Assembly: GCA_977020255.1 (NCBI GenBank)
Contig: CDROCS010001087.1
Location: 744,001 to 808,000, forward strand
From: Obrimoposthia wandeli
Taxonomy: Eukaryota
Reading direction: 5' to 3'
Length of the DNA: 64,000 nt
Below, one piece after another: positions 452 through 56,246 of the stretch (position 1 is the first letter of the stretch; every line of letters starts with the position of its first letter). The notes beneath the pieces were generated by a model. That model did no database searches and was not told where the DNA came from. It saw nothing but the letters and a program-made list of their open reading frames with translations. A program made the translations under genes and the position numbers.

Positions 452-3400
452 GTGAGGATGCTTTCCCCAATGTACACACCCTAACAGCACATCAAATGCC
501 ACACTGACTCATTTGCATTTCCCCAAGAACATAAAGAACTTGTAACATTAATTCATCTACAGTACATCGGTATTTAACCACGATTCTAAGATTTATCTTC
601 TTTTTCATTGTTAATGATAAAAAGAAAACTAAACGGAAATATTTTTATTAATCATTACATCTGTAAATAATACTTAAAAACATAGAAAAAAAATCTTGAA
701 ACTAAAATACACTTTAATTGCTATCCATGCTATAAAAGAAACATATAAATGTTCTGGATCATAATAATATAAATCGAAATATCTATTGATACAAACAAAA
801 TTCGAAAGTAACAAACCAGCAGAAGCAACCACATGATATAACAAAAGTATGAAAGAAGAAAAAGACACAATGATAGATAGAATTATTAGATGTCTCAAAA
901 AAGGAAAAAATAAACATATGATCATTTATGCCCGAGTAGCTGTCAGTGTGGTGATGGTGCCAGGTCTCTGCCCTCCACTTGATGTAAGACATTCCTCATC
1001 CAGCGAGTTAATTGATCCTTGCGAAATGCTGATCATAGAACCAGGTCCTTGTTAGGCCACAACGTACTCATGATAAATTCAAATCAACATTTCTCATAAA
1101 GTGATATTTTAATATTTTTATAAAATCCTCAAGATAAATATTTGTAATTATTATCTAAGGAATGTATACTTTAGACATTTATATATTTCACAATAAATAG
1201 ATTGTGCAGATTATAAAAGTGAACCTTAGAGAATCAAAATTGTATAATTACAAATCATTCAATTACAAAAGTTATTAGAGAAATAATCAAATATTAAGAA
1301 TCAATAACGTTTTAACCTCTAAACTTCATATATTTACTTAATATATGACTTAGAATACGAAATGTATTGTACGTTTTCATAAGGATATGTTTTATCATAT
1401 ACATAAAGTCATTATTATTTTTTAAGATAAAAACTATAAAGTGACTTATATTTTGAAACGTTTAAAAAGAGATAAAAAGAAACTACTGAAAAGTTACTGA
1501 AAGAAAAGTTAAATACACACGAGAATTGCTGAAATGGCAAAATTCACAGGAATACTCCATCCAAAATAAGAAATAGCATTCATAAACTAAGAAACGATAA
1601 AGCACAAGTTAATAGAAAAACTAATGCAAAATCAAATTACTGGCAATCATAAAGTTCAAGAAAATGCATGTTAAGATCTCTGCTGCAAATTTCTTGAAGA
1701 ATAAACATGAAAATGTATCCATTGGTGCAAAATTTTCTTAAAACTTCAAATATGTTTATTTTGAGGAATATTCCTAAAAAGTTTGGCCTAACAGGATTTT
1801 CAGAAAAAATATTCTTTTCTAAGACGATTTTCTTTTTGCTTTATGGAACTTCGTATTTGCAAAGTTGACAGTTGCATTATGGTAGCAAAACAAATCGAAT
1901 ATATAACAAAGCTGTTGGGGTGGATATGTGCAAATTTTGGATTTTATTTCAATATAAATACCTTTGAAAATATATTAAATATCAATAAATATTTGTACAA
2001 ACTTGAGATTGATATCTTTAGAAACATACCTCTAAATCAAAAGGATAATATAATATAGCAACAAGACAATACGAACTCATAAAGACTGTGAAGTTGTTGA
2101 TTATTTATTCCCGATTGTTCGATAGAAGATAATGTAAATTTTAACAATTGTTTTAATTAACATGTGAAAGGAAAAAATACAAATGAAGATTTATAGCTTC
2201 AAAACGCTTTTACGTAAAAAATGACATAATTTCTATTGTGTTTTAGAATTATTGTACTTTGTAATTTTAGTAAACTGTATACCATCCACCGAATATCACT
2301 GGCATTTCCTCCTAACGTCTTCACTTAAAATATAGTAGTAATAATGAAATTAAATCTGAAATGAGTTGGAACTTGAAAAAAAATCAATATTTTTACTGAG
2401 GAAATGTATTTGTATTAGTTAATTTGATATTGCAAATATACATATTTTAGTTAGAAAGCAGATTTAATTTATTTATTTCATCTCTCAGATATCAAATCGA
2501 ATACTGCGGATATCCAAGTCAGACATTCAGAGTATTCTTATAACAAGAAAGATAACTCCTCGGTCTACGAGGTAGGAGGCTTGAATTTCCTTTTATTGTG
2601 AAATTTGATTCCAAAAAAGTGTCTCATCAAGTGTGAAAATTATGTGAAATTATGCGTAAATATTTATCAATATTTCAAAACTAACCATTTGTCTGTAACA
2701 TCCGAAATTTTTTTCTGATAAAAATCATTTTCACTTTCTACAATATTTCTGCATACTCTCCATACTAAATTTAGAACTATTTAAAGCTGAAAAAGTTCAA
2801 ATATATTTTTTAAAACCCTTAAATATTTCTTATTTTATGTGAAAGTAGACCTTAATAACCTACATGGGGAATCAATCTGATTTGGCACCAAATTTACCCT
2901 CAAGTTTATGCTTGTTAAAGAATTTAAAAACACAATTTCAATTGAGAACCAATTTTAAATACCTCAAAAAGCATCAGTTGGAGGGTAAAACTGGTGCCAA
3001 GTTAGATCAATTCATCGTGCCAAGTTACCTTCTAAAATCTTTTTTTAGTTTTTGTCACAAGTGAATATTTTCCTTCTAAGCAAATTTCGGAGCTTTCCCT
3101 TTGAAATTAGAAACTTACTGTACATATCTTTCCGAATACATTAACGACGGACCCAGTCATAAGAAAATTAACAAAACTTCATTAAATATAGGTCTACAAC
3201 TTTAGGTCAGAATATTTATTTTAATTATAAAAAATTAATTTAAAATGAAAGACATTTCTAAATTTAACATACTCTGCATAAAACTTTAAACCTTACAAAA
3301 TGACGAATTCTAATCGAAAAAATGCAAATGTATCCTTTTTATTGAGGTCTATTGTGACATATACTCTGTTTTAAAAGGTTTTCATGCAAATATCTTAAGA

Positions 3401-4653
3401 TTGCACAGCACAACATGAACATTTCCCTCCAATGAAAGTAAACATTTAGTCATAGCAGCTTTTTTTGATCAAAAATAGTTTTAATTCACAATCACTTCCG
3501 AAACCTTTTATATTATATTATAAAGAATTTTTATACTTTTCTAATTAAACCATTATGAGATTTGTAAAGTTTCTATATCAGGTGAATAATAAATTGATTA
3601 TTATAAAATACCGATGTTTGGAGAACATTATTAGCAAGCCAGTGTTCAGTAAACTGACGCTTTTTGAAGTGTAAGCATCCTAACTAAAACTTTTTCATTG
3701 GCTAAGGAGCTCCTTAACTCTTTCTAAAGTCTGTTTCATAAATAAAATTTGCATTTCCTTAACTAATGAAAAAGTTAAGGAAACATTTAATAAACAGAAT
3801 ATTTTGTTTCACATATTTTCAAATTGTAACAAAATCGAAGTATCAAAATTATTAATATAAAATATAGTTTAACGTTTAATTTAAGGAAAAAACTAAAAAA
3901 ATCAAACTTAAAATCAAAACTTCTAAAAAATAAGCCTTAAAACTTTTTATTTTTAATATTATTGATTAATCTACAATTGGGATTTAAATCTTTCATAAAT
4001 TATGTTTATCGAATTTTTAAATACAAAATCCTAATCCTAAAATTATATTGGAACTAACCCACTTCAAATTGAATTAGTAAATAGGAAAAAACATCTGATC
4101 GAAAAGTAGATAACGTTGACTAAGTCGAAATTAATATAATTAATGTTGTTTGTATTTTTTGTGTATTCTGTTGTGATACATGATTTTTAAGTTTTGTGAT
4201 ATTTTTATTGATTTGAATACTATTTTGATTTTATAACTGCGATGTTGAAGTTTTGATTATCTTTCTCTGAGGAAGGTTTATGAATTTGAATCTTTTTAAA
4301 CGGGAAACTGAAATACTTCATTCAAATTTGTAAAAATAGAATATATCCATAACATATTGGAGAAAATAATTAATTGTTATTATAAGAACGAATGAAACAT
4401 TATATATGGTGTATTGTGTTATCCATATAGTATTATTTTAAATTAAATAAGTGTGTACTATTGTAAAAAAACATAACTCACTAAATAAACAATTAGATAA
4501 CAATATACAAAATAACTTATCTGAACAAAATCTTGTATGTTGCGTTTATGTTTGAATTGTTCTCCATATATATGATTAGTAGAAACTGTGTTCCCTAAGA
4601 TATGAAATAACAAGTGTCTTATTGTATTGTGTTGTATTTATATATGCCTAAAA

Positions 4654-5420
4654 TGGTGACCACGACGATGAAGCTTCAACATAAAGTCTTCTAAAGATCA
4701 TTCCAAATCAAAGACCATATTCTTGACTTTTCTGAAATATATTCAAAAACTCGTAATTGATTGATAATATGTAAATGAAGAGGATCGCGATAAAATTGAC
4801 ACATGCGATAGCGGAAACGTTTAGTAAAGTCTCCAGGAAGGATTAGAAGACAAATTGGATTTCATTGGGAATTTTGAGAATCTTTTATCTTACAGAAAAA
4901 CTGTTATATCAGCAGAAGAATTCATCAAGAAGATCAAGAAAATGGTTGCGAAAGTAATGAAAAACAAAATAACAACAAGATTGGCAGCGTTCTTCAATTA
5001 CTGTATAAAAAACGAAGCTATTATGAAAAAAACCCAGAGATTCAAGATGAAAAAATAAATTTGAAATGAAAATGTTTCAAAGAAGAAGACAAATCAGAAA
5101 CGAAAGAAGACTCAAGGGGTCCTCCACCAATAAGTAAGCAATGATCATTTTGATCTCAATGAAGAAACAGAAAACAAAAGAAAACGTTTACACAGTAAAT
5201 TAGCCAAGTACGTATGCTACGGTTCTCAAAGAATGAAGTTGAGGGAACAGTTTCAGCCTAGATTTAAAATATATGTAAACTCGAAATGGAGATCAAACGT
5301 GAAACGCAATCCAAAGATTCAAAGTAACAATCGCTCGTATTTTCGTTTTAAGCACCAAGCTTGTGTTATATATCATGGATGTCACAAGAGAGGACATATT
5401 CGGAGTTTTTTGTGACACAA
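4654..5420 (+). mobile_element. Ty3/gypsy LTR retrotransposon remnant (PBS plus decayed gag)
   Basis: PBS-like TGGTGACCACGACGA at 4654, similar to the PBS at 44421-44435; downstream gag-like ORF fragments ending in a degenerate CCHC knuckle (HGCHKRGHIRSF) at ~5370-5415. Confidence 0.55.
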
Positions 5421-8400
5421 ATGAAGACAGTTAGGCGATGTTTGTTTCAACAAGAGAAAGTTTGGAAATGAACATTAGCTAATTTGGATGAGGATATAAC
5501 AGAAGAACTACATACAAAAAAAATCAACATCGGAGAGAAGTTTTAAAGAAATATTAACTAAATAAGTAGCTGCTGTCAACGATTTCGATATTCTCCAGTA
5601 GTCAAGTGATGTTAAAAGTTAAGCCGGGAAATTAGCGGAGACATCAATCAGAGTACTCAATATACAATAGAAAAGGATTGTAAAAATAAATGTTTGAGAA
5701 ATAGAAAATGTAATTTTTAAATTAATACTTTATTCATTAAAAATGATAACGTTGATAATGAATTAAGTTAATTAAGTACTGTCAATTTTCAGGATAATAG
5801 TACAGATTATTTTAATGATGATAATTATAATTTTAAAAGTGAAGATTATTTATGTTTTATTAACCATATTTATGCTGTTTCTTATTGTAAAATACGCTTA
5901 TTTTTCGCAACAGAATAACTGAATTAACTGGTTTATATATATATGTATATGTGTCAAATCGCATTTCTGTATCGCACTTCCCAAAATCCTTAAGAAATGG
6001 AATTTTTTAACTAATAACACATTTCGTTATACGCAATAATAAACGATATTATTTGTCATACACTGTTATTTGCTGTGTGGGTATGGAGTAAATTTAGATT
6101 AAGTATAAAAGAGAATCAATTAAAAACTACTTTCAGTAATTGATTTGTTAGGATGTAATAATTAATAGAGAATATTCTAGGAATATTAATATGCAGTCTA
6201 AAAATTTACTCACCAGATTGAATTTCTTTTACAAAATATATGAAAATTAATTTCAATAATTGTTTTATTTGAAAACGTTCTAAATTATTTTAAGTTTCTA
6301 ATAATATATGAAAATTTAATTTAAAATAATTTTGTTTCAATTTCAGAATATCAACCAACTCAATTTTTTATTAGAATAATTATTTGAAAACTGAATTTGA
6401 AAAACCATTTTCTACAATTGTGAAGTTGATTAACGGAATTAAATGAAAAAGTGAAACAAAAGAATTAATCTGTCGATTTCTGCAGACTATTTCAACCACC
6501 ACAAACTTCAGTTTACGTTGCGAGCAGGAAATTAAATTGGATTCTGTGAAATCTTTGGGCAACAGTGGATTCTTTATTTGCTATTTTATTGAAAATTAAG
6601 ACCTACTAATACCACATCGACTTTTCTGTCGTAGCTAAATTCACATTTGCAAAGTTCATGAGCATAATTGCAAATAGAACAGCAATCGTTAGAAATTGAA
6701 ATAAAAGTTATCCTTAGGTATCCGTTTGGATTTTTATTTTAATTATTAATTGTAAGCAGTAAAAATAGAAACAAAATGGATTTTGTATTAAAAAGAATAT
6801 TTTTAAAAACTAATTTTCAACGAAGTGATATAATATACAATAAAACAAGGGTGGCAAAGTTATTGACCGGTCGATCGTTTCCACAATATGAAGTTAATAA
6901 TATTTTTTAAAAATTTTATAAATTATACCAACCAATATTTGATCATTTAAATATATTTTTTGAGATCTTATTAAGCTACTTATCATAAGTAAGCTTTGAT
7001 TTAAATTTTTAACTAACTTTAACAAATTTATAAGGGTTCTAAAAAATTCATAGAAATTGGTTGTGGAATTGGGCTTTCTGGCAATATTTTTATTTAATCT
7101 ACAACAAACTTCATATTGCTCTAAAAATATCGTATACAAAATCACACTGGTTTTTTTTGGAACAATGAAAAATATGTATTTAAAATTAACTTAGCAAGTC
7201 AAATGATTTATATTACGATTTAATGATAAATATACAAATTATGTACTTTGTAATAGTTTTAATTTACTTAAACTTTACATTTGATCTTAAATTATTTATT
7301 ATATCGAAGCTATGCAAATCATAAAAGTGTCAATGTACTCATGAAATAGTATACTAAATGTTTTGTAGCTGTCAGTTATAAGTGACATAAGTAAATGAAG
7401 GCTAATGGAAGATTTTGATATTCGATTTAATTACTTCAAAAAGATTACACAAATAGCGATGTTCTCCGCATTTTCGTTTAAAATAAATCTAGACGCATGT
7501 TATATCACTGGACTATAAATTTAATATTAAATAGAGATATTTTCCTAAGGACTCGTGCTTCAGAAAAATAATTCTGAAAGCATGTTACTCAAGTAAAATA
7601 TAAGAATGTCAAAACGCACTGTGAATATATACATTCGTGTTTCGGGACAACTTGCTTTAGGGAATCGGATTTTTCTTGAATGAATCATATAAATATTAAT
7701 AATCGTTCATGATTATCTGATTCCCACTTCCTCATTTCCTGATACTGTTTTTATCAGAGTATAAGCCTAGCTAAAAAATTGTACTTGAAACGAAAGCTCC
7801 AATATTTCATTAATTTATGTTTTCAATTTTTAATAAAAATATTATGCAAGTTTATTTTCCCTCTCCTTATTTTAAATGTCCGGAGTCAATCTCCACCCAA
7901 ATATTTTAGCCACCTCTTTTATATAGTATGTTATTCAACAAATGCATTTAAACATTTTTTAAAACTATTTATTGTATTCGTTTAACATTATTTTAGAAAA
8001 ATTTTAATCTATATTCAAGATACATTTTAAAATTCCAGTTTCCAGCTGTAACTTTAGTTTAAATTTAATTCACTAGAAAGAGGCATATAGGCTTCTGACG
8101 GAAATCTAGCTGGACGTCCCATATTTGTATTTTGTTCCGTATATTACTTCATTTATCCGGGATGTCCCTGCTAATGCTTGGCTGGAACTCTCCTTCGAAC
8201 AACTGATTGTGCATGATAAATTCAGAACAATCTTCAAAAGTAATGTAAAGTTTTTTTAAAAAATTATTGATTTGTATCTAAATTGAAATTGAAAGTAAGT
8301 TAGTCGAGAATAATTTTGCTTCAATGATTCAAAATAGTTTGATAGATAGTCAAATAGCCTTTCTAGTAGAAATTGATTCAAACCTGTTCAAACTAGGTTC

Positions 8401-22900: not shown

Positions 22901-24699
22901 TATTCCTGTCTTTCTAGGTTCAAAGTTGAAACATTTGGTTGTAGATCTGGGATCCTATTTCTTTTTTCATTTCTCTTTACTCAGGGCAGGCTTTTTTTCA
23001 GAAAGAAAAATTGTTTGTATTTTTTAAATTTATTTAAATATTATCACATTTCATCTGTATGCCTCAAAATGAATAAATTACGGCATTTGTATTTGTTCTC
23101 TACAATATTATCGTATAATTGTGACAACTTGCACTAAGAATTGTCAAATTGTCAAAAAAGGTGTATATGTTAAAGGTCAATTAACTGATAAAAGTTTTTC
23201 TGCGACAGTGAAGTTCGTCTGTTTACAATCAGCAACTTCAAATCTTGAGAAGTTAGCTAGATGCAAAAGACTGGAAAAGGGTGAGAAAATGTGTAATAGT
23301 TTTGCTTAAAATTTATTAAAACAAATTGTTATGTCTATTTTGAAATTTTTCATTCATTTATTAAATTAAAATTTCCACTTCGATTTATTTTACTTAATTA
23401 ATAAATTCAAAATATGTGATATGAAAGATGAAATTTGACGGTATCACGTGACGAATGCCAAACACCAATACTTTTAATGGAAATAATCCGAATATTACAG
23501 CAATTAAGCAAAGGAATGACACATTATATTGCTTACAATACGTCAGATGTTTGACGGTGTAGTCAACGGAATCACTGTATCTAGGAGGAGAATAAATTCG
23601 ATTGTTTCTGCTGCTGCAGTTGCAACTCGAGTGAGCAAAGTTGTGAGCTGATTTAATAATCGGTGCAACAGTTGGGAAAGGGAGCGAGGGAGCTGTGATT
23701 ATGAGCCATACAAAATCGATTAATCAATGCCTCACCCTCTCTTTTGGATAATCGTGAGATCGACCGGCTGGCCGATTTTTGGAGGCTGCAGTTCCGAGAA
23801 TTGCAGATCAGAACTCGTATAGAACCGCGCTCCTACAAAGCAGGGGAAACCAAACCGAGAAAGAAAGCAAATAAGAAATCCAGCGAAAACGAGAGAAGTA
23901 GAGAGAAAGAGTCAATTACGGCTTAATGCTTCAACTAGTTTAATGATTGATTAGCCGAGAGGATTAATCCGGGATTTGTAGTGTGGCCAAGAACGATGAG
24001 GAAGCAAATATGGCTTGTTGGGTTTTATTGGCAATCAGAAAGCAATGTGAACCGCTCGGTTGTGCTCTGGTGGGTTTTTGATTGACCCTTGAGTCTGTGT
24101 TTTGGTCTGAACACGGATCCGGGCAAGTCACAGTGACTGGTTTTGGTAGGCATAAACTCCAGAAATGGAAATAGTGGATACTGTTAGACCAAGACATATT
24201 TGAGGGGATTTCTTTAATTCACTGCTTCATTCATTTACATTCAACAAAGATATGGTCAAGCTAAATACATTAGTTTGCTATTTTTTTATAAATAACTTAA
24301 GAAATTAAATTTACTGAAACATGAGGTTTTTATCTGTAACTTCATCATTGACAACTGAATTCTTACAATTAGCCCTTCGCTTATAAAATACTAATGTAAA
24401 ATTGTCTAGTATCCAGATGGATTATTTCTCTTCGCTGAACTAACTTTATGATTTTTTAATACTTTATAGAAATTCTTTACATACGTTAATACACTTATTT
24501 TCTTGTGAATGAAACGGAAAATTTGTCATTAAAAAGTCATATTAAAAATAACTCTTCAGTATGTAAACCACTATTGCTATCCCAATCGAGTTGTCAGTTA
24601 GTATGTCATTGTATGGGAGTTTTGTAATCTTACATGTGTCTACTTTCATATAATACTCTTCAATGACTCTGTTTATTGAGGACTGATATACTCGAATTC

Positions 24700-25260
24700 G
24701 TTTTCATGTATCTCTTTGACTGGAACAAACATCATATCTCATATCATTAACAATTTCTATTTTCGTCTGCCAGGAGTTGTGATTTGAAGTCATCAATACG
24801 CGATATCGGAAACATACTACAGGTCTCGAAAAGTCGTTTGCACCAGAAAGATTCTCTTAAGTAGGTGGATGTGTCCGGTCTAATCCACACCCCTCCCCCT
24901 TGTCCTTTAAAACCGTGCATGTGTGTGGAGTGAAATTTCGTGTAGGTGTGTGGAGTATAATTTCACTCCACACACATGCACGATTTTAAAGGACAAGGGG
25001 GGTCCCAAATTTTTATTTCGCCCCCTTGTCCTTTAAAACCGTGCATGTGTGTGGAGTGAAATTTTACTCCACACACCTATACGAAATTTCACTCCACACA
25101 CATGCACGGTTTTAAAGGACAGGAGGGTGTGGATTAGACCGGACACATCCACCTACTCTCTTACCTTCCAATAAAATTATTTCTATCCTTTCGTTGGTGT
25201 ATCGTGGATAATTCATTTTTGACATATTGAATCAATAATGATTGTTAAGTCTGTACGAAA
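24700..25260 (-). mobile_element. Possible Helitron RepHel remnant, interrupted by the mini-Polinton
   Basis: After removing the insertion, fragments FYW..SGA..TFRDL..V..LLADE resemble the Helitron FYLRLLL..GPTSF-DL..GLL-DD region; weak. Confidence 0.3.
24860..25157. mobile_element. 298-bp non-coding mini-Polinton (left and right termini only)
   Basis: Starts AGTAGGTGGATGTGTCCGGTCTAATCC and ends GGATTAGACCGGACACATCCACCTACT, the same termini as 46067-57175; exact 6-bp TSD CTCTTA (24854-24859 / 25158-25163); two subterminal palindromes joined by a ~20-nt spacer. Confidence 0.95.
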
Positions 25261-25779
25261 ATTCAAATTATATTCAACACCAAAATCTGCCGTCCTCTTT
25301 CTGTGTGATTTTTTAAGTAAAGCACACTGTGGGGAAATGCAGGTAGTTATGAAATAATATGAAGACAATTAGTTACACAATCATACAGGTACCAACATTC
25401 AACTAATTAGTTTATTGTGAGATTATTTACATAAAAATGATATCAAGTTTAAATCTAACTAAAATGATATTTCATCATTTGTAAATATAAATGCATATAG
25501 AGCATAGATATTTTCCATTTAATCTCACTCATGGAATCATTGCGATCACCATATATGTGATACGCACAATATTATGTTCTACAAAAACAAAATATTCATA
25601 CAAATATATACGAATGGAATTTTGAATGATAACTATTTATTTTGAAGTTAAAATTTTTGAAACTTATATATTTACACTTCATAATTGTTGATAGATCAAT
25701 ATAAAAATGCAATATGGCCACCATTCACACCCGAAACTGTTTGCAAATGACCAGGTAACGTTTACCCAGCATCCATCAA

Positions 25780-29176: not shown

Positions 29177-29940
29177 TGTTTTCTATCGTAGACATAATTT
29201 AAAAGAGTCAAATACCTAAAACACAATATATAATTTATACATGTATACAAAAGATTCTATAAATATATATTGCCAGTAGAATATTTTCAATTTCTGATTA
29301 CATAATTATCCAGTTCACTAATCAAACTTGCACCTCTTCAACTATTAGATTATCCTGGGGTGGATCCCCCTTGGAAACTGAATAAGTCCAAAAATTATAT
29401 TATTCTATATGGGTATTCATACATGTCACATTTCTTGCTTCTTTTAATTGGGTCCTTTTTAACAAGCACATTTTCATTAACTTAAAAAATCCCTTCTCCA
29501 TTTCTCTTACTATTTAATTTCTCTAACTTTTCAGCTTTTATTTGTTGATTTTCCTTACGTCTTGAATGATATATTCTTTTTTATTTGTTGCACTTGGTGA
29601 TTGACATTTTATTTTTCTTCCATAAATGATCTCAAACGGGAAAAGTCTTCAAGAACTGTTTACTGTTGCATTTATAAAAAATTATATTTGTGATAATAAA
29701 TCGTGTCAGCATTTTTTTGTTTTAGTAGACGCTATTGTCGTTACAATCATATCTATTACCGTGCGTATAACTCTTTCTGCTAGACCGTTAGCTTGGTGTT
29801 GATAAAGTGATGTATCAATACAAAATATTCGTAGCCAATTCTGAAAATATTTTCCAATAAATATTCATCCTCTATCTATTAAAATGAATTTAGGTTTCCC
29901 AAATTTATATATATCCAATTATACAAACATTTAGTTTGGC
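29177..29940 (-). mobile_element. Ty3/gypsy integrase remnant with adjacent 3' LTR (29177-29302)
   Basis: FGKPKFILIDRG..HQANGLAERVIRT..INAT..PFEIIYGRK (rve core), then VNENVLVKK..YEYPYRII; 126-bp TGT...ACA segment whose ends match the LTR at 44440-44532. Confidence 0.75.
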
Positions 29941-36139: not shown

Positions 36140-36324
36140 AGTAGGTGGATGTGTCCGGTCTAATCCACACCCCCCTCCCCCCCTTGTCCTTTAAAACCGT
36201 GCATGTGTGTGGAGTGAAATTTCGTGTAGGTGTGTGGAGTGAAATTTCACTCCACACACATGCACGGTTTTAAAGGACAGGGGGGGGAGGGGGGTGTGGA
36301 TTATACCGGACACATCCACCTACT
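36140..36324. mobile_element. 185-bp near-palindromic mini-Polinton
   Basis: AGTAGG...CCTACT termini as in 46067-57175; a single central palindrome; exact 6-bp TSD TTAAAT (36134-36139 / 36325-36330). Confidence 0.95.
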
Positions 36325-36339
36325 TTAAATGTATTTTAA

Positions 36340-36660
36340 ATGCGCCTTATAATATGGTGCGCTTTATGTGTGAAAAATACCTGTTCATAGAGTATGCACC
36401 TTATAACCAGGTGCGGCTTATCGTCTCGAAATACGTTATATTATTACATTACAACAAATATAGCTCTAAAATCTATTTACACACAGTACAAATGTCGGAT
36501 GTGATAAATCGTTGTTTTCGTGCGTCTTATCCGTGGGTAAATGCGGTTATTGATATATTTTAAAGCTATATTTCTTGTAATGTAATAATATACCGTATTT
36601 TCGGGACGATAAGCCGCGCCCTATATGAACAGGTATTTTTTCAATTGTAATATATTTTTA
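36340..36660. mobile_element. pogo/Tc2-like MITE fragments
   Basis: A right end CGGCTTATCGTCTCGAAATACG (~36414-36435) and a left end TACCGTATTTTCGGGACGATAAGCCGCG (36591) that are reverse complements; internal GCGCCTTATA-type repeats. Confidence 0.55.
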
Positions 36661-39700: not shown

Positions 39701-41089
39701 CTCTTGAATTGATGGTCCACCTTGAATGGTCTAGAATTTACTAGAATTGTAGTAGATTACATTTCAAATACTGACTCAGAATTCAAGGTGAGCCATCAGT
39801 TCAGAGTCCCAATATCACCTCGCTTTGTACATACTCCCCAGACTTCTTTGCTGAGCTCTCTGACAAGTGATTTATTTACCTTCACTGTATTATCTCTTCT
39901 TCTTTGTCTCTTTGTTTCTAGTAAAATCAGGTTAACGTTTGTCCTAAAGATCAAACAAAATGAACAAAATGAACAAGAGAAATAAAAGTGTATTTTACTA
40001 TTTATCCGTGTTGCCTGTGTTTAATATGGTTCAGCGCAAAAACAATTTATATTTGATAAGTATGCTATACCATTAAATAAAGTACCTTAACGAAAGAAAA
40101 AGTTCTAGAAAAAATAATACTAAGTTCAGCAATTTCACTTATTTTTGAATTTTTTAAATATATCTAAATAAGGTCAAAAAGTTGCTTTTTATTTGTTATA
40201 TTTTATAAAATTTTACTTAGTTTTCATGAATCAAGTCATATCGTTTTAATTGGTTTCTTATTTTGTAAGCAAGACAATCGAATTTTACCAAAATAGATAC
40301 TTGAATTAAGCTCACGTAAAGAATATTTATATTTTACATGATAATAAATCGCTGAATAAAAATAATTTTGCTATAAAAATATGTACAGTGGAAGATGACC
40401 AATATGTATTTAAAAGTTGATTCAAAATAACTTTTACGACTTCAATTATTCCTAATAATTAACAAAAAAACTGATTGTATGCAATTATTGTATTTTGTGA
40501 ATTTCTAAGAATTGAACTTGTATGAAATTATTTTGAATCAATATTTACACCTATCAAAAAATTATAACAGGTAGTTTATATAATTGACTTTTTGCACCAT
40601 ATTGTATCTGCTGGCAATCATTAATGACTGGACTTTTAGTTATTTCAATTCACTCGCATAAATTAAAAAATGTACTAATTTCAAAAGTATGGTTCCTTAC
40701 CAAAAATCAAAAGAGATTTGTGAAAATTATTTACATTTAGAATTACAGTTTAATAATAAATAAAAATGTTCAAATAAATTCATTGACCTATTTACCGTCA
40801 ACTCCAGAAATAATTGCAGGATTCCTTTCTATTGTTGTTATGTTACTTCAATCTCATAATTTAAAATATTATAAAAAGTTAAACTAAAATAGTTTCGAAT
40901 CAATACATAAATTTGTTCCATTTTCACAACTTAAGCGTAATCTACGGTTTCAGATAATTGAGGAAAACAACAACAAAATTGATTAACATTTATTAAATAT
41001 GTACAGATTTGCTCCTCAAACAAAAATGTACAATAGTACAGTATGGTGGTAAATGTCTATGATTAGTTTTTCAATCTGCATGTATTTAT

Positions 41090-44532: not shown

Positions 44533-45900
44533 TAACTTCTGATAAACAGTCTTATGATATTTTCTTTCTACGAAGGCCTCAAAAACATCAGCAAGCAAAT
44601 ATAAATATAAGTTTAAATATACACGCATTTAATCATTTGGACTTTCACAATTGAATTCATTAAACATTACAGTATCTAATTCAGTAACAGGAAGTAACGT
44701 ATTTAAAACTTCTTCTGATGTAACTTATTCATATGGAAATACTCCCTCGGATATTATTTGGCTATTTGATAATTCTATACTTGTTAAAGGCAGGTTTTTC
44801 ATCTTACTAACTAATTGAAACAAACTTTCACTCATAAATTGAAAATAATCTATAAAATGCAATATAGCAAATCGTGTTCTTACGGCAAGAACATTTCAGT
44901 TGATAATGGTATACACGAAAAATCTTTTTTTAATTTAGATATAGCATGTTTTAAGTTATGTAATAAGATTGCCAAAACAGGAACCTCGTTTAATCTACGA
45001 GATATATTTCATTTATTACAAACAGCTTCTAAATATTTATCAGTCATGGGATCATGATACTAAAAAGGTTTATCTATTTTTGGATGACATAAGTAACCAT
45101 TTTTGGCTGTTTTGTATGCTCGCCAATCCAAAGATTTCATTTTAATACTTTATTAGTGTGAGTATTAAACCAGGGTTTTACATTATATTGCATTAAACTT
45201 TACTAATAAATTTTGCAAAAATAGTTTTAGAAAGGTCCACAAACTTGGAAAAAGTCTTTGCTAGAATTTTGTGAAGTGAATTGCCCTGTTTACTCAATGT
45301 ACATAATTTAAGATCTTTTTATATGTATTTTGTTGTCTAAAACAATGTAGACATTTTTGACACAATTTACTTTGAATGCTTCTTTTACGATAATTTGAAA
45401 GACGATCTAAATCTGTTACTCTTATATAATGAAAGTTTCTATCATTCCGTAACATAGAGAGATTGAAGACTTCATCTTCATGATTCCTAGTCATATACAT
45501 AACATTTACAAATTTATGTTTAAAAAAGATCATAACTTCCATCATCAAAATCCTTTTCATCGTCATATATAAATATTTTAGATTTAATCATCATATTTAC
45601 AACATTTTCGTTCTGTATTTTAACAGTTTTGAAAAGAAATAAAGTTGTTTACATTATTATCAACAAATTCACGTGTAATATAGCTATCATTCAAATCGCT
45701 TGTTACTTCAGCTCTAAATTATTTTATATGTTTTGATGAAGTTGAAAAACGATTATTTATTTTACGCTTAAAGGGGACTTTTCAATTGGAACATATGACA
45801 CTTTTTTCTTTCAAATTATGTTTATGAGATGCATTGAAATTTGCATAGCTATCAATTGAAAATAGGATATACAAGTAGGATATACATAGTAACTAGTACC
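44533..45900 (-). pseudogene. Degraded protein-primed DNA polymerase B of the older element
   Basis: FHYIRVTDLDRL..CQKCLHCF, HDPMTDKYLEAVCN, LLHNLK, GVFPYE and YLLADVFEAF are collinear with motifs of the pPolB at 51362-52695. Confidence 0.85.
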
Positions 45901-46066: not shown

Positions 46067-46350
46067 AGTAGGTGGATGTGTCCGGTCTAATCCACACCCC
46101 CTCCCCCCTGTCCTTTAAAACCGTGCATGTGTGTGGAGTGAAATTTCGTGTAGGTGTGTGAAGTGAAATTTCACTCCATACACATGCACGGTTTTAAAGG
46201 ACAGGGGGGTCCCAAAAAACGTTTTCGCGCCTCTCGGCGCGAAAGGCTCGGGACGGGTGTATATCACAGACTTCCTTGGGTGATGGATGTTAGACGGTGG
46301 GTGTAAGTCGATGAGTGATGGGTGTAAGTCGTTGGTGGGTGGTGGGTGTT
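46067..46350 (+). repeat. Left terminal inverted repeat with subterminal palindrome
   Basis: Core ~145 bp matches 57030-57175 in reverse; further similarity 46250-46350 to 56880-56975; palindrome arms 46103-46147 and 46165-46209. Confidence 0.92.
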
Positions 46351-46516
46351 GGTGACTACACATGTAGACGACCCGTGTCATACCCAAGACCCTAATACAC
46401 ACCACCCGCCCCTTTGTGGCGGGCTTCATTCTTGATCTCCAGGCACGAAAAACATTACAAAAAATAAATTATTTGAATAAGAGGCTCTCATTGGACAATA
46501 AAAGAGGGTTAGTAAG

Positions 46517-48388
46517 ATGTTTGTGTATATAAAGACACGTCCGTTCATTATTTTTCATAAATCAACAATTCCATTCTACAACAACGTTGACCTAGACGAA
46601 GAGACAGAGGTTCAACTCTATGGGGATCTCTCTCCAGTGCAGCAGCAAACGCCACCACCGTCGCAATACATTGACTTACATAGTCAAGACTCATCGGTGG
46701 TGAGCTAAGGAGAAGCAGCAGCAAGAGCAGACCTGTTGGAAGAAGAAGCCCCATTGGCCAGCTCAACTCCAAGAGAACAACCAATGGACGTGAGAGGCGG
46801 GGTACAGAGATCCCAATATATTGACCTGACAAGTCAGGATTCGATAAAGAATTGGGGAGACTGTACTCCCAGGCAAAACATAGAAGCTGTTCGTCCAGCA
46901 ACTTCGGCAGTAGCAGCAAGGAAATCCTGGCCATGGAAATTGATCCCGCTGTCGCAGCCGGAGAAAGTCCTCGCACCAGACTCAGACGAGGAGTTGTTCA
47001 CCGATGACGTTCCGTCGGATGGGGAGGAGGACTTGATTCCATTCATCGATGAATGGATACAGCCAAGTATTGGAGCCCCAGGAGCCAACGAGTCGATGGT
47101 GGCAGAATTGGACGAGGACGAGTTGCACCTGTTCACCTATGATAATAAACCTATGATTGGGATGGTCTCACTTCCTCTGCTACTCCGAAAGCGGATAATA
47201 CAACGCCTGAACCATTCAAAAGGCCGAAATCTCCTGTTAGGAGAATAAAAGCGATGAATGAGGTTAGACATCATTTATTTTAAATGTTTTTAATTTCATT
47301 TTCAGAAACTTCAACTAGATTTGGCACCGTCAGTGACCATGACGGAGAGGCTGATTGAACTGCAGTACTTGGCGAGTCAATGTAGTCAGGAGCTGCCAAG
47401 GAGTCAGCTCCGATACCTAACGTCTCCAGATAATTTTAAGGTAAATTATTAGATATTAAATTTAATAATTCACATAGATGGAGAACATTCTCGAAATGGC
47501 GACGCCTATTCAACCGGTGGATAGGAAGCAAGCGGCAGTTAAGAAACCGCAACGCCATCGGGTCAAAACCCACACTCGGAAGAAGGCCAAGTTGGTGAAA
47601 CAGGCTAACCTGCCCATCATTGAGGTAAAATATTTATATGTTTAAATGTTATTAATATTTTGCAGGAATCCGTCCAGATAATTGAGGAGAAATGGGGAGA
47701 AATTACTCCTTTCCCGCGGAAACGGACGAAGCGAGCAGAGATGAAGAAGGCGAAGCGCTCAAGAACATGTTCCACCTCAATTGGCCATAATTCTGAGACA
47801 GTGATTGGACGGCAGGAGATTCTCCCATCTCCAGTGGACGACGGGGCAATTCTATACGAGAGGATCCCAGTCTCACCGATCGAGATTAGTCCGCCATCAA
47901 ATCAACGACGCGTACAGGAGACATCAAATTTGGCCAGGGTTTGTGAGACTGCATCTCCAACAACCAGCCAAAACTTGAAGAGGGCCTGGGATGAAGCTGA
48001 ATTGGATGAATTCCAGGCGGAACTGGATACACCGGCAATGCTTCCAGATTCGCTAGGGAAACAGGATGCCGTCTCACGTCAGCTTCAGTGTGAGAAGGAG
48101 GAGAAACAGAAGAAAACTCCGCGGGAGAGGAAGACTACTGCTTTTATGTCAGGGCCATGAACATCGGCTGCACCTCCTCCCAAAAAGTTTCGGGAAATAT
48201 TGCCAAAACCTGAGGGAAGGACAATTGCTACAAACCAACAGGTGAAGGCGAAAAAGAAAACGGGCCGTCCAAAGAAGAATTAACCAGTACCGCTTTCTCC
48301 ATTAATACTTAGTCAGAGGGATTTCGATCCGGATGATCCCAATGATGACTTTGTAAAGATGTTTAAGAATATAATTTATAAAAATTAA
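46517..48388 (+). pseudogene. Orphan low-complexity nuclear protein gene with three introns
   Basis: Phase-0 introns 47263-47305, 47441-47477 and 47625-47665 join an open frame (..RPKSPVRRIKAMNE|KLQL..PDNFK|MENIL..LPIIE|ESVQ..); in-frame stops at 46706, 48158 and 48281 plus a frameshift near 47153; true start uncertain. Confidence 0.75.
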
Positions 48389-48605
48389 TTTCATATATTT
48401 TCTTCCTTATATTTATTTTTTTAAAAATTTTAAATTAGAAATATTAAAATACTATCTTTAAGTTTATTAGGTTTAAATGCAAGATAAGTTATAGATTTAT
48501 TAAACTCTTATTTGATAAATAAAAATATATCATATTATTGGATTAAAAAATATCTTAAATTTATATACATAGGTTCAAAATTATGAACCTCATCATAATT
48601 AAAAA

Positions 48606-48928
48606 ATGGAATTCATTAAAATGAAGAGTCTGGTAACGAAGATTGAAGCAAACATCAGAAGAAATGAGAAGAAATGGGACTTAAGAAAGAGGGTCCTCAA
48701 TCAGAATATGTATACTGCTGTCGCGACCGAGTGGAATCATCGGGTGGAGATACAAGATAGGAGGTTAGCAGAAAGACGTCGAAATATTGGAGTGGAATAA
48801 GAAGATCGAAATGGAAAAGAAGGAAGTGGATGAAAAAAGAAGAGAAGAGATGGAGGATAATCGTCGAGCAGCAAGAAAGAGAATCCTCCAGATTAAACCG
48901 GAAGAGGGTCCTTCTAAAAAAAATTAAT
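48606..48928 (+). pseudogene. Small charged coiled-coil-like orphan protein
   Basis: MEFIKMKSL..RRRNI then a frameshift to LEWNKKIEMEKKEVDEKRREEMEDNRRAARKRIL..KKN*. Confidence 0.55.
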
Positions 48929-49068
48929 TTTTGATTATTATTTTGTCTTTATTGATTATGTTACATAGGAGAATTGACAATATATACCAATCTTAACATG
49001 AAAGTACTTTGTTATTTTAATGAATTTTTCGTTATAAACAACGGGATTTGCTGCAAATTTAGATAATT

Positions 49069-49560
49069 ATGCAGGAATATATTATAGATTTTGAGGCTTT
49101 CATTAACAAAAATGGTGATTATATTATAAAAAAATTATGTATTATGGATGTATGCGACGTTTTTCATCCTTTGCATTTCATATTTCAAATAGATATCCCG
49201 TTTAAAAGTTTAGATTATAAGAAAAAATTTACTAATTTATATCTAACTAATTACCTTCATTTATTAAAATGGAAAGAAGGACATAAGGCTTTTTGTGAAA
49301 TATGTATTTTTGATACAATAACATTTAATTTTGATATAGAAATTGGATTTTTTTATGTTTTAGATGAAATGGATGGCAAAAAGTATAAGACTTTAAAAAA
49401 ATATTTTCCCAAATTGAGATTGAATACTTTAAATATTTCACGTGATCATCTATTAAAAATTCCACGAAATATTTGCTGTCGATATCGTAATCATGGTGAC
49501 CATTGCACATATTAAAAATGTTTAAGTCTATCTTATTATTACTTGACATGTAGATAAACA
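49069..49560 (+). CDS. DEDD/DnaQ-like 3'-5' exonuclease family protein
   Basis: ExoI-like IIDFEAF..IIKKLCI, LKWKEG, and C-terminal CRYRNHGDHC..KC; probable premature stop at 49513. Confidence 0.6.
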
Positions 49561-49747
49561 ATTCGTCTAATTCATAATTTTCATTCAATTACAAACAATT
49601 CTTTTGATTGGAGGAATAAAAATTATTTTTTCGACCATTTACAATCCTTCTAAATTTTTTTAATCCAATAGGAAAAGAGCATGTGTGCATAAATTTTAGT
49701 ATATAAGCAAACACTTTCTTCATTTAAATCCCCGACAATTTGAAATA

Positions 49748-52700
49748 ATGACTATTGTAAGAATCTATACTTATTATTTCCTTATTAATATTTATTATTT
49801 CAGATTACTTGTATCCTGTTTCCAGCATATTGTGGTGCTTCAGCTCCACATGGAGGATAGACCTGCATGGAGATAATGTCCGCCTACTATCAGACAAAGT
49901 CTCGAGGGCTTCACTTCTTCGTCTGCCCCTTCTGCAGAACAATGGAGGAAAAGGAGTTTCGAGTCTTCTTCGGTGAACATCGAGCTCATCTATCGTGTTT
50001 CACGGCCAACAAAAAGAAGAGGGATATCGTGCAATTGGTGCGCGATTCGCTGGCCGCACCTGCTCCAATTCCAGTTGCAGTCGATCAACCCGTTTACGGT
50101 CCTGCAATTGATCTCCTGGCTCCTGATTCTGCCCCATCCACTCAAATGACTAACAATGAGTGGATGAATGACATATCCCAGTCAGATTTCGAGATGGAGC
50201 GATAACTCCTGGTTGGAGACCACCGAGGAATTCGATTTCGTCGAGATAACGGACGACAGCTGGATGGATTCCATCAATGAAGATGACTTCATTCCAGCTC
50301 CAAATGTATTGCCTTCATTAGGTATTTTTTATTTATATTTTTTTAAAATTGTAATTATATATATTATTGTAATTATATTTTATTTTAATTTTTTATTCAG
50401 GAAATACCGTGATACAGCCGTCATCCGTTACGACAGCCATGCCTCCCCCATCGCGAGTGCCTACATCGATGTTAGCACGTCTTAGAGGTAATAATATTAA
50501 AAAATATATTTTTTTTTTAATATTTTTTTTCAGCAGCATTATCCTCTACAACAGCCGCTTCTTTATCGGCAAGGTCAGCTCCTACCTCAAATGCAGCATC
50601 TACAACTGCAGCAGCACTTACTTCAGCAGCATCTACTACATCAGCTGCGATTGCCTCAACATTGGCAGCATGTCCAATAGCAGCACCTTCAACCTCAACT
50701 GTTAATATAAATAGTTGTCTTCCCGTTCAATTAGGGGGAGGTTTGTCAGCGACTGTAGGAAGAAAGAGGCGAGGCCAATTTCTTAATAAGGTCCCACCAA
50801 AAAAACGTAGAGAAAACGGTGCTACTATAGAGTATTACTTAAATAATAAATATGTTATAGTTAAGGTGCCATTAGGAAATGAAATTTTATTAAACGTAGG
50901 TGTAGATTCAAATATTGAAAATCTTTTAAAATCAGAAGTGACTAAATTAGGACAGGCTAAGGTTCAATTTTGCGCAACAGTGCAGTTTAAAAATGTCAAT
51001 GAGGAAACTAAAACTTGGGTAATTTCACATAAAGCAACTGTTTTCTATGTTAATTTTGTAACTGAAATTGGAAGAAACCTAGATGAAAGAAAATTGCTAA
51101 TTATAGCGAGTTAAGTAGTGGATGGACTCTGGTAAGAATTCACGATGTTAGCTTTGTTCTAACAAAGTTCAATGACATTATATATCTTTCGTGGAGTTCA
51201 TATATTCCTTCACCTAGATCTCTTTAACTTTCACCTTCCATTGTTAACGTACAAAACAGTGATAACCTTTGCTTTCTGTATAGCGTGTTGGCCATCCTCA
51301 AAAGAATGTAATTATTGAGCACAGAGAGCGTGTCAGAAAATATACCCCTTTTTTAAATGAATTGCATTATCATGGAATAGATTTTCCTGTTAAATTAACT
51401 GCGATATCAAGATTTGAACACCTTAATAACTTGAATATTAATGTATTCAAATATAATACTGATATCTCAATTAATGTAACAGATGAAGAAATTAAAAAAA
51501 AACATTTTGTAGATGTAATTTATAGGAGCAAAAATGAGGAGACTCAGGTCAACTTCATTTTGCTCGAACATAATAAAAAATTCCACTATGCTGCAATTCC
51601 CAATTTAGATCGTCTTCTAAATTTAGATAATGGAGCCTTACCGGTTAGGATAAGGTGTAAGTGGTGTCATAGATGTTTGCATGGATTCCGATCCGAGCTC
51701 TCTTACAGCAAACATCTGACATTATGTTCACTGAATCCTGATGACAATACGCTATATAACATGCCTAAGGATAAGGATTTAAAATTCAAGTATTGGACAA
51801 AATGCGTAACCGTGGAATTCAGGGTGTATGCTGATTTTGAGTCAAATTTAGCATTGCACGATCAGTATGAGAGTATTCACATACCGGCTTTGGCAGGCCT
51901 ATTATTCTTAAGCCCCAATATTACACAGTATCATAAATCTTTCGGTCCAAATTGTATTTTAGATTTTATGTTAAAATTAGAAACAACAATTGTCAAACTG
52001 TGGTATGATCTTAATGCTCATCAAGCAATCATCATGACAGGCATATACTGGGTTAATTTTAATTCTTGTAGATTATGTTATTTGTGTGGAACCCAGTCTA
52101 AGTTAGTCAGAGATCACGATCCTGTTACGGGGCGATACTTGGGAGCGATGTGCAACCTCTGTAACCTTGGCCGTCGTCTCCCTAAAAAACCACGAATTCC
52201 CATCGTGTTTCATAACCTCAAAGGATATGATTTGCATCATATACTTAAATATGCGTTGGGTACATTAAGCTCTTGGGAAATTTCATGTATACCTCAAACT
52301 TCAGAGAAATATTTATCTTTAACTGCATATACTGAATTCTGCAGTTTAAGATTCATAGATTCTTTGCAGTTTTTGAGGGGGTCTTAAAAAATTTAACGGC
52401 ATCTTTAAATGCATGGCCTATCACACAGTCAGTGTTTCCAACTTCGGTTAATGATAAGGGGATTTTTCCGTATAAATTTCCGTATAAATTTGCGAAAACC
52501 TTTGCAAATTTAGAAAATACTACAGAAATCCCACCCATAACTGAATTTCAAAGTGTAAGTCTTCAAGACTATAATGACGCCCGTATATTTTGGGCGAATA
52601 ATTGTCGAAATCTTCTTGAATATATGCTTTATTATATGAAATTAGACATTTATCTTTTAGCTGATGTTTTTGAGTCCTTTCGTGTAAAGTCTTAAGCAGA

Positions 52701-54119
52701 AGATGGGCTAGATCCCATGCATTTCTTTAGTTTACCTGGTCTTTCATGGGCATCAGCAATAAAAACTCTTAAAATTAATATCGAGTTACTGCAAGATCCC
52801 GCAATGTATCAAATGTATGATTATGGTATACGCGGTGGAATGACTTTTGTCAACAAACATCATGTTTTCAAAAATTAATCCACGGAGATTCTGTACATCG
52901 ATATTACTAATTTGTATGGGTGGGCGCTTACTCAACCTCTATCTCATGGCAACTTTAAGTGGGTTTATGACGAGGAAGAGTTGAATAAGTTGATGACAGA
53001 TTTGGCTACTGTCGATACAGTTTCATCATACATCGGCTATTTGGTTGAGGTTGACTTAACAATCCCTTCCAATGTGCATGATAAATTAGATGATCTTCCA
53101 GTAGCGCCTGTTCATTAATCCCCACCTAATTCAAAGGTTAAGAAATTATTGTTAACCCATGAAGACAAGTTGAATTATGTTGTGCATTGGCGGCTTCTTC
53201 AATTCTACTTAAAGTTGGGAGCGAAAGTTACTCGAATTCATCGTGTTATAAGCTTCAGTCAAACCTTGTGTTTAAAGACTATATTGAGAAGAATTCTAGA
53301 AAACGTAATTTGGCTACTAGCAAATTCGATCGGGATTTTTACAAGTTAAAAAATATTAGTCTCTTTGGAAAAACTGTAGAGGACTTGCGGAAACGTATTT
53401 GTCTACGGTTTTGCAATGATGAGCGTAAATTAATAACATATACTAGCAAGTACAACTTCAAGCGTAGTTTTACAATTGCAGATGACTTGGTAGCAGTGTT
53501 ATTAGGAAAACAGAGTATTTGTCTCGATCGACCGAGTTATATAGGTCAAACGGTTTTAGACATTTCTAAACTCAGAATGTACGAGCTTCAATACATAGAA
53601 TTGGAGAAATATAGACAAGAATTCAATTGTGAGATCAAAATCGCAGCTGGGGACACTGACTCTTTCTTTTTAGAATGTAAAAATGTTAGTTTAAATAATC
53701 AATTATTACCGGCAATGTTTAGGGACAACTTATTAGATACACATAAATATCCCGCTAACCATCCTCTACACTCTATGAGTTTAAAGGATATTATCGGGAA
53801 ATTTAAGGATGAAAGCGAGAGACAAGTTTTGTATGATGATTGTATTTTCCTACGCCCTAAATCCTACAGTTTACATGCATCTAATAATACATGTTCAATG
53901 AGAGCAAAGAGTGTGGAAAGAAACAATCTTACATATGAGGCCTACCGGAAAGTTTATGATACTGGGTGTATTGAAAGCGTTGAGCAAACTAGATTTATTT
54001 CAAGAGCCCATCAACAGTATTTCCATAAATCAACAAAAATCGCTTTGAGTAGTAATGATGACAAGCGCTTTTGGGTAGAAAAGAACGCTAGCCTGGCTTA
54101 TGGACACTTCCGAATTTAA
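49748..54119 (+). pseudogene. Protein-primed family B DNA polymerase (pPolB) with spliced N-terminal extension
   Basis: Motifs HNLKGYD and FIDS (exonuclease), YIDITNLYGWAL (A), KLKNISLFGKT (B), GDTDS (C); N-terminal SGWTL..NVQNSDNLCFLYSVLA; introns 49757-49803, 50322-50400 and 50488-50533; multiple stops and frameshifts. Confidence 0.93.
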
Positions 54120-54314
54120 ACGGTTTTCATTTTTTGATTTTTTTAGTTTAGTTTTTTTAAATTTTAGATCACTATGGCACCTTGACTCTAACTTTTTGTT
54201 ATTTCAAAACAGTTTTAAGGATGGACCTTATCTTTGCTGACAGATCTCATTGTGATGTTGTTTTTAATAAATGTATTAAAAATAATTCGTCTTATGTCTT
54301 TTATTATTTTACCC

Positions 54315-54752
54315 TTATATTTTAAGGGATTTAAAAATATAATTCAAAATAAAACATTTAAAATTTTTATTTTTATAACACACTAATCGTTTTGCATAAA
54401 ATACATAAATGTCCACAGTTTCTCGTCGCAGGATCCTGATATTGTATCTTGTTGTAAAATACTCTTCTTCGTCCTTTTTGAATAGTTGAAACAAGTTTGT
54501 GTGGATAATACATTGCAAGTGGATCAAATACATTATTGTCCACTCTCTAACATAAATAGCTATCCAATGTTCTCCTGGTAAATTCGAAGTATGAGTATTG
54601 ATAATGTATCCTCCAGATTGAAAAAATGGAATCATATCAATAGGATAAACTCCATTGAATTTATCACCCAAGACCTTCTCTGTTAATTCTTGTACTTGTA
54701 CTGAACTAAATAAAAATTAATAAATATAAATTTAAAAAATATCTTACTTAAT
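54315..54752 (-). pseudogene. Adenain-like cysteine protease (Polinton PRO)
   Basis: GVYPID..IINTHTSNLPGEHWIAI (His), VFDPLA (Asp) and, after frameshifts, QYQDPATRNCGHLC (Cys); 42-nt intron 54706-54747 near the start; start codon appears lost. Confidence 0.85.
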
Positions 54753-54859
54753 TCTATAATATGACAGTTCTGTTTTTATTTATTTAGGTAAAACATTATC
54801 AAATTCATCAAACGCTTTTTGCCTTATTTTAAGCTTTTATGGTTTTTATTGTATGGGTT

Positions 54860-55409
54860 TCAAAGGTATTTCTGTTTAAACCAATTGTTTTTAGCGAGTT
54901 TATCATCAAATAAAACTCGTATTATATTGCTCTTTACTGTAAACGTTATTTTACTATTTTTCAATGTTAAACATTTATCGAAATATTCACTACATTCCTT
55001 CTGTATTAATTTACAGAAATTCACTTCACTATCTAATTTATAATCTTTTGAAAACATTTTCAGTTCCACTACATATTCAAACATGCATTTTTCTTTCATT
55101 TTCTCTGCAGTTTTAAAAAGATTTATCTGTTTCCTAAGATTAGCCGAAATCGTGATTGATTGTATTGCAGTGATTCGAATTCCAAATGGTAAATTGAACC
55201 CAAGCATTGGTATTTTGCATCCCATAACACGACAATTTCCTAAAATAATTCAATATGAAAATAAAATAATAAAACTAACCTGTAGGAAAAATAACAACTG
55301 TAAAATTGTCAAACATTTCCACATATTGTCTCGGCTTCCATTCATTGAATGGTAAGTACGAAACATCATCTTCTGTTCTATCTTTATAATTTATATTTAC
55401 GAGTTTCAT
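54860..55409 (-). CDS. TATA-box-binding-protein-like protein (divergent)
   Basis: ATG at 55409; phase-1 intron 55240-55279 gives MKLVNINYK..KPRQYV..TVVIFPTG|NCRVMGCK..IQSITISANLRKQINL..CMFE, collinear with TBP QLQNIVST..TALIFSSGKMVCTGAK..IQNMVGSCDVKFPIRL..SYE; C-terminal part does not resemble TBP. Confidence 0.6.
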
Positions 55410-55624
55410 TAGACTAAAATTGTATTCTGTAAATTCTTCTTTATATATGTCTGAACCTGTTTTTTATTGCACATTTCTTGTAATTATCTTGCAAACCTAT
55501 TATAATTGGATGATATATTTAATCCAATCAAATTCAATGCTTTAGTTATATTAACCAATGAGATTCATGTCTTTGTTAGAAATTAGTATAAAAGAATGCG
55601 CCATTGGAGGACAAATCACAGTAA

Positions 55625-56109
55625 ATGCATTCATATCAAAGACAATTATCAACAATGGATGATAGCCAACGGGTATTAAGCGGTGACGAAGATTCGGAAA
55701 TATTTGAAGAATCGGATAAGGATATGTATGAAGAAGTGAAACAGTATTTCAAATACAAAGTCAGATTCTTGAAGAAGGCTCAACTGATTGCTTTAGTTAA
55801 TCCTGTGACAATTGAAAGAAGAAAGTTCAGCTACTATCTATCAGGTATTCAAAAACCTGATTTTCAATATCTTAAACAGAAAATAGAAAAGACAGTTCCA
55901 AATTTTACTTTCAATAAGAACGAATTTTATATCCGAGGACCAGATTTCTAGCATTTCTAGATGACTATGGAAGATATGTTGATATTGATGCGTTTCCGAA
56001 AAAGAAGCAATGGACTGTAACAATTCGACTTTATGGTTACAAGAAAGATGAAATTGGAACAAAGTTGCCTATGTGGAAAATTGAACGTGCTCATATTTCT
56101 ATGTTTTAA
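55625..56109 (+). pseudogene. Putative OB-fold ssDNA-binding protein, paralog A
   Basis: Frameshift near 55950; clear similarity to paralog B; C-terminal WTVTIRLYGY..LPMWKI. Confidence 0.45.
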
Positions 56110-56246
56110 CTTTTGCATGTCATAAATTGTAATCAGTTTTACTATGTTTCTTTCATTTAATAATCAGTTTTATTTATTTAAATATTTGTATCTTATATGT
56201 ATTTTTTTATAAACATTGTTTTTTTAATCAGTTTCCTTATTTTAGA

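Follow-up and report, generated by a model that had tools for sequence, protein, structure and literature searches.

The window which we have studied, a stretch of 64,000 nucleotides from Obrimoposthia wandeli, contains two short insertions formed only by the ends of a Polinton-type element. We call them mini 1 (298 bp) and mini 2 (185 bp). They have no coding capacity and differ in structure: the first one has two hairpins, the second one has a single hairpin. They are real features and belong to a set of end-only derivatives with two classes; the genome around them is rich in such ends.

End-only copies in the window

A preliminary description of this DNA had correctly placed a 298-bp copy at 24860–25157, with an exact 6-bp target site duplication (TSD). 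It overlooked mini 2, a second end-only copy with its own 6-bp duplication. The features of both are the following:

24854–24859, no strand assigned: left copy of the 6-bp TSD of mini 1 (CTCTTA)
24860–25157, no strand assigned: mini 1, a 298-bp near-perfect palindrome of Polinton-type termini with two hairpins
24860–24889, + strand: outer terminal segment of mini 1, first letters AGTAGG
24895–25001, + strand: left large hairpin of mini 1, 43-bp arms, 21-nt loop
25003–25020, + strand: central spacer of mini 1, one copy of the small imperfect palindrome of the terminal inverted repeat (TIR); symmetry axis
25021–25127, + strand: right large hairpin of mini 1, 44-bp arms, 19-nt loop
25158–25163, no strand assigned: right copy of the 6-bp TSD of mini 1, covered by an exact public contig (25134–25288)
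36134–36139 and 36325–36330: TSD of mini 2 (TTAAAT)
36140–36324, no strand assigned: mini 2, a 185-bp palindrome with a single hairpin (outer end, arm, loop, arm, outer end)

Mini 1 starts with AGTAGG, ends with CCTACT and has CTCTTA on both sides; at the local composition a 6-bp match of this kind has a chance of about 7e-4. As had been described, it holds only the two hairpin-bearing termini of the 11.1-kb element found at 46067–57175, namely the outer 140–160 bp (approximately) of each end and nothing more. When aligned with the left end of the long element its left part is identical in 148 of 162 columns; its right part and the right end share 144 of 167. As single-stranded DNA mini 1 folds into a single hairpin of −164.5 kcal/mol (z −37), and none of 200 shuffled sequences folds equally well. 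The corresponding values for mini 2 are −106.1 kcal/mol and z −25. Neither mini has an Rfam match at the gathering threshold.

With up to four mismatches allowed, a pattern search detects three left ends and three right ends of the family in the window, and two of the three copies are minis. An exact 6-bp TSD, as in Polinton/Maverick elements, flanks the long element and both minis; the chance of each duplication is between 3e-4 and 1e-3. All six ends carry AGTAGG, five letters of which agree with (AGT)2; the Polinton end motif is either (AGT)2 or (AG)3. Duplications of 6 bp and ends of the AGT or AG type are also described for vertebrate Mavericks in the accessible text of PMC8097293. The minis are derivatives of Polinton/Maverick elements, not members of the group.

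Several other repeats lie close to the minis. Just to the right of mini 1, positions 25236–25445 correspond to another high-copy repeat, with a summed depth of up to 158,000 in public run X1. A 77-bp inverted pair (17773/28488) which flanks mini 1 was kept out of the element: it is formed by two copies of a dispersed repeat with 78% identity. Two unrelated palindromic MITE-like repeats, 73% self-inverted, are found at 36410–36620 and 40411–40547; the first of them lies 85 bp to the right of mini 2.

The long element

The features of the long copy are the following:

46067–57175, no strand assigned: defective Polinton-type element of the same family as the minis, 11,109 bp, TSD GCATAT
46067–46348, + strand: left TIR, with the large hairpin at 46103–46209 and a small imperfect palindrome from 46209
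49876–54116, + strand: broken gene encoding protein-primed DNA polymerase B (pPolB) with an endonuclease VII-like zinc domain
54397–54725, − strand: broken gene of an adenain-like maturation protease (profile iE 4e-11, two frames)
56883–57175, − strand: right TIR, with the small palindrome at 57013–57033 and the large hairpin at 57037–57139

Its TIRs have about 282–293 bp and 84% identity, within the range of 46–1,500 bp given for Polintons/Mavericks in the accessible parts of PMC8097293 and PMC10748475. With TIRs of this size, mini 1 holds the outer half of the parental repeat and mini 2 about one third. The inner right TIR has a 21-bp tandem array (56790–56930, 6.8 copies), which has 2.4 copies in the left TIR. 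The exact terminal patterns of the family have no match in the viral, metagenome and prokaryote collections.

The polymerase has 55% identity with PF03175 proteins (E 2e-98), with 101 matches among 2,113 candidates; against P0001 it shows four frame changes and four in-frame stops. The protease has matches from eight loci, and its piece in the long element matches nothing in the PDB. An alignment of 20 of the 101 pPolB homologues was used to gather relatives. It did find some viral relatives, whereas the single pPolB piece of the long element, when used as query, found none. In this way 94 relative loci were obtained: 80 kept of the 497 confirmed in metagenomes and all 14 from viral contigs. 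The closest ones are contigs of 1–4.5 kb without ends, and the family termini have no blastn match in any of the 94 loci. One distant Polinton relative (L076, with rve, ATPase and protease) has a large hairpin at its positions 3–251, with 77-bp arms and 92% identity, at the contig end upstream of pPolB; it is one of ten loci checked, most of them without ends.

Ten profiles prepared from the ORFs of the relatives were run on the six frames of the window, and only the protease profile matched the long element. The sensitivity of the profiles is limited by the pPolB identity of the relatives, about 30%, although the approach still detected the protease and an unrelated integrase remnant. Among relatives with the same type of polymerase the rve integrase is present, with 4 of the 16 ORFs tested above the Pfam cut-off. 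In the long element the best match inside to the rve profile (25 ORFs from 25 of the 94 loci) has an iE of 6.5, and none of its 17 ORFs has a Pfam rve domain. Two profiles of the packaging ATPase (10 and 15 ORFs) gave nothing better than iE 3. Profiles of putative capsid proteins had no match; their seeds, ORFs of 436–449 aa in the relatives, are candidates by size and place, without a Pfam match, and several ORFs of the long element carry no assignment. The rve integrase is part of the definition of Polintons/Mavericks according to the accessible text of PMC5499653. Since none was found, the 11-kb copy is a defective Polinton-type element. The preliminary description had taken it as a full Polinton: the family assignment holds, with pPolB and protease present, but both genes are broken and neither integrase nor ATPase was found.

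Short AT-rich introns seem to be present in the genes of the long element, at 46784–48280 and 54700–55300, as read from the sequence; intact vertebrate Mavericks are reported as intronless in the available part of PMC8097293. The best atlas match of the ORF at 54863–55249 is 0.77, with no lead. A 150-aa ORF at 49063–49515 (+ strand) has an N-terminal D-x-E motif and no Pfam or PHROG match. This motif may point to a DEDD exonuclease. A decayed integrase-like remnant at 29577–29897 (− strand, rve profile iE 2e-8) shows no link to Polinton ends; it could come from an LTR retrotransposon.

Hairpins and junctions

In the TIR of this family two hairpins follow each other: a large one with 43-bp arms and a small imperfect one just inside it. 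The axis of the mini 2 palindrome is the large hairpin, that of mini 1 is the small one. The preliminary description had noted two near-repeats of the mini 1 spacer at 46210 and 57014 in the long element. Both motifs are there, and the interior between them is about 10.8 kb. They represent a single imperfect palindrome, present once in each TIR: in 15 of 21 columns the left motif is identical to the reverse complement of the right one. When the right terminus is folded, the motif there gives the small hairpin just inside the large one. The fit of the spacer to both motifs holds well for the right one (16/18) but not for the left one (12/18), and the exact stretch common to both is only 8 bp (at 46209 and 57013). 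The crossover of mini 1 is placed within 25002–25009.

Owing to the palindromes within each TIR, direct repeats are common to the left and right ends of the long element. We have found eight exact ones of at least 8 bp. A switch at the 41-bp repeat of the arms gives a product of 175 bp (175–179 bp for the large arms), compared with 185 bp observed in mini 2; the 8-bp motif gives 305 bp, compared with 298 bp in mini 1. The centre of each mini coincides with one of the two hairpins of the TIR, and a template switch there would account for the two of them. The removal of the interior by one switch, as suggested in the preliminary description, agrees with these sizes but does not apply to this particular copy: mini 1, which has a TSD of its own, is an independent insertion and does not derive from the element at 46067–57175.

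It had also been suggested that a junction common to many minis would point to their amplification as a unit. This test is weak, since the TIR palindromes fix the position of the junction: collapse in place or repeated birth would also yield shared junctions, which therefore cannot distinguish mobile minis from collapsed insertions.

Abundance of the ends

Four public runs from one sample contain the stretch and may be the source of the assembly. Their contigs were placed on a region of 900 bp (24576–25475) at 82% likeness; in run X1 there are 30,514 of them. In X1 the ends reach a summed depth of 1 to 7 million, compared with about 47 for single-copy pieces. Contigs of this run exit into unlike flanks in at least 239 cases at the left end (87 + 152) and at least 109 at the right end. 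For X1 and X2 alike, dividing the summed depth by the single-copy depth gives a rough estimate of about 5,400 to 169,000 ends, according to whether the maximum overlap inflation (31-fold) is applied or not. This range should be taken as a rough bound and not as a number of copies; it joins minis and long copies, and it may halve if the single-copy depth is per haplotype. The data suggest, as a rough bound, that the host has at least about 5,000 such ends.

The ends are not uniform. At places 24901 and 25122 there is a common terminus variant (108 and 224 contigs in X1) in which about 13 bases at the foot of the large hairpin are different; the family therefore has subfamilies. Another 117 contigs exit at loop position 24951. 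Some rearranged termini have joints in X1 at about 10 to 56 times the single-copy depth: 24951 to 24893 (depth 453) and 24879 to 25083 (depth 2654). These multi-copy joints are a weak hint of copying after rearrangement; one of their sides is anchored by 20–25 letters, and they may belong to long elements. Two other signals were discarded. The joints from 24995 to 25121–25134 (19 contigs in X1) were first taken for minis with a single hairpin, but any ordinary end splits in this way, because the right tract of mini 1 is short. The depth of the spacer bin (210,129 in X1) was not accepted as proof of a shared junction: the bin includes 12 bases of the arm, which could explain its depth.

Origin of the minis

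We propose that the minis, non-autonomous and without genes, derive from a Polinton-type family, were born by copy-choice at a hairpin and were then replicated and inserted in trans; we consider that this proposal has an even chance of being right. The switch would take place at the hairpin, in one of two ways: the new strand folds back, or it slips between the paired ends. Both give the same product, because a palindrome within an inverted repeat is a direct repeat at both ends. It would occur outside the chromosome, during the protein-primed, strand-displacement replication of the element. In the published model, as summarised in the available part of 10.64898/2026.07.28.741278, the TIRs anneal, the element is excised, pPolB copies it and it is inserted with a new duplication. 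A product with two intact ends could therefore be copied and inserted by the polymerase and integrase of an intact member elsewhere, with a new 6-bp TSD. In this view the minis would correspond, among Polintons, to snap-back defective viral genomes, with a MITE-like behaviour.

Several observations favour mobile minis: their hairpin-centred anatomy, their own TSDs, the predicted product sizes close to the observed ones, their proportion among the copies in the window, the great abundance of ends, and the fact that the long copy has intact ends and a TSD in spite of having no integrase match. Non-autonomous Polinton families with thousands of annotated copies in zebrafish also agree with it. 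Against it, the spacer depth can be explained by the arm edges and is no evidence for multi-copy minis or junctions; the spacer of mini 1 is about three small changes away from the right motif of this parent copy; and an intact integrase of the family was not found in the window. High counts of ends do not require mobile minis either, since vertebrate counts omit gene-less remnants and zebrafish has thousands of Polinton fragments.

Collapse in place predicts identical sequences and TSDs, and it is a serious competitor, quite possible but with the balance somewhat against it. Where the chromosome is single-stranded, at a fork or a break, the TIRs of a long insertion would pair, slippage between their direct repeats would delete the interior, and a 'solo terminus' would keep the old TSD, so that the minis would be scars which never moved. 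The same logic applies to the nearly precise excision of Tn10 and to solo LTRs. The exact direct repeats of 41 and 8 bp in the long copy yield both observed size classes. The accessible text of PMC12524634 documents, in a Tn10-type transposon, copy-choice deletion at short repeats stimulated by long inverted ones, and Polinton remnants reduced to TIRs appear at one C. elegans locus in that of 10.1101/2024.01.15.575659. However, each mini would need one long insertion, hence thousands of them if minis are common (a rough bound). Furthermore, mini 1 used an 8-bp repeat although repeats of 41 bp were available, and a weak argument comes from the rearranged ends which look multi-copy.

Another possibility is that the minis are ordinary MITEs of a family mobilised by some unrelated cut-and-paste transposase, the 11-kb element being two MITE-like ends around decayed polymerase DNA. 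The lack of a detected integrase in the long element fits this idea. So does a second, unrelated pPolB remnant at 44563–45530 (− strand), more decayed, with 28–43% identity to the homologues and loose about 540 bp to the left of the long element: it indicates that polymerase debris is common here. We find this explanation improbable, since the TIR of the long element reaches about 140 bp beyond the content of the minis, a single TSD flanks both its ends with pPolB and an adenain-like protease inside, and the 6-bp TSD and AGT start resemble those of Polintons. An assembly artefact, in which a long repeat was collapsed between its ends, appears very improbable. Whole mini 1 is spanned by none of the public contigs listed and its left flank is mostly uncovered; but its right end, TSD and flank (25134–25288) are matched by one public contig with zero differences, possibly from the same sample as the assembly, and the two minis each carry a distinct TSD and distinct differences from the long copy.

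A wider form of our proposal is rather doubtful, and we put it forward tentatively: thousands of 'defective-interfering' Polinton minireplicons of 185–300 bp, formed by polymerase fold-back and replicating and integrating in trans, would outnumber their parents and define a minimal cis-element of about 90 bp per end for the replication and integration of Polintons.

Comparison with known systems

Non-autonomous Polintons are already known at sizes of 10–15 kb. In zebrafish the families Polinton-1N1_DR, -2N1_DR and -4N1_DR have consensus lengths of 15,469, 11,092 and 10,436 bp (PMC9341512, in the part available), with 1,874 to 5,744 annotated copies (its supplement 3). The minis are also non-autonomous, but they differ from these families by being only termini, of 185 and 298 bp, centred on the TIR hairpins. 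Two thirds of the supplements of PMC9341505 gave no match. For vertebrate Mavericks recognised by INT and pPolB a median of 8 per genome, with a maximum of 287, is given in the accessible text of PMC8097293. Insect Polinton insertions without polB are reported in that of 10.1101/2025.02.07.637071, while an apparent absence of non-autonomous copies is mentioned for Anolis in the available part of PMC3014272. Polintons below 1 kb are not described in the accessible parts of PMC6431247, PMC8504770, PMC11296320, PMC10748475 and 10.1101/2023.06.07.543989. The earlier remark that MITE-sized Polintons are not well described agrees with our search, in which no paper on such derivatives was found; Repbase, Dfam, subscription journals and bioRxiv supplements lie outside it and may hold entries. 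Neither the size below 1 kb nor the hairpin-centred anatomy appeared in the literature covered.

MITEs are defined as short, non-coding elements with TIRs, TSDs and a stable fold-back structure. The minis share all these traits with the MITEs of cut-and-paste transposons, but the parent of a MITE encodes a transposase, whereas that of the minis is a self-synthesising pPolB element and their amplification is putative. In solo LTRs and Tn10 remnants the interior is lost and the TSD is retained. The minis resemble the remnants of nearly precise Tn10 excision, where the loss takes place between short direct repeats near the ends (PMC12524634, accessible text), but they differ from these and from solo LTRs by keeping both complete ends, which could still serve a polymerase and an integrase. 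The snap-back defective genomes of AAV (PMC8235507, accessible text) are also palindromic, with one terminus and its mirror image; unlike the minis, they are primed by hairpins, do not integrate with a 6-bp TSD, and their particles keep promoters and gene parts. The virophages and PLVs of Halocafeteria have palindromes in their TIRs and gene-poor fragments with TIRs and TSDs, like the minis (10.64898/2026.07.28.741278, available part). Their palindromes have 52 nt, lie beside the TSD and accompany replication genes other than pPolB, whereas those described here belong to a pPolB element, with a start about 35 bp inward from its end.

Implications

The transposition of Polintons has been inferred mostly from genome sequences. 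If copies of 185 bp insert as such, the signals for priming and integration would lie within the outer 90 bp (approximately), and DNA of genome length would not be needed for integration. If the minis are scars, Polintons would have an exit similar to that of solo LTRs, and counts of such scars would reveal many more past insertions than those based on genes. If the minis are mobile, Polintons would have MITE-like parasites, which surveys based on integrase and polymerase would miss.
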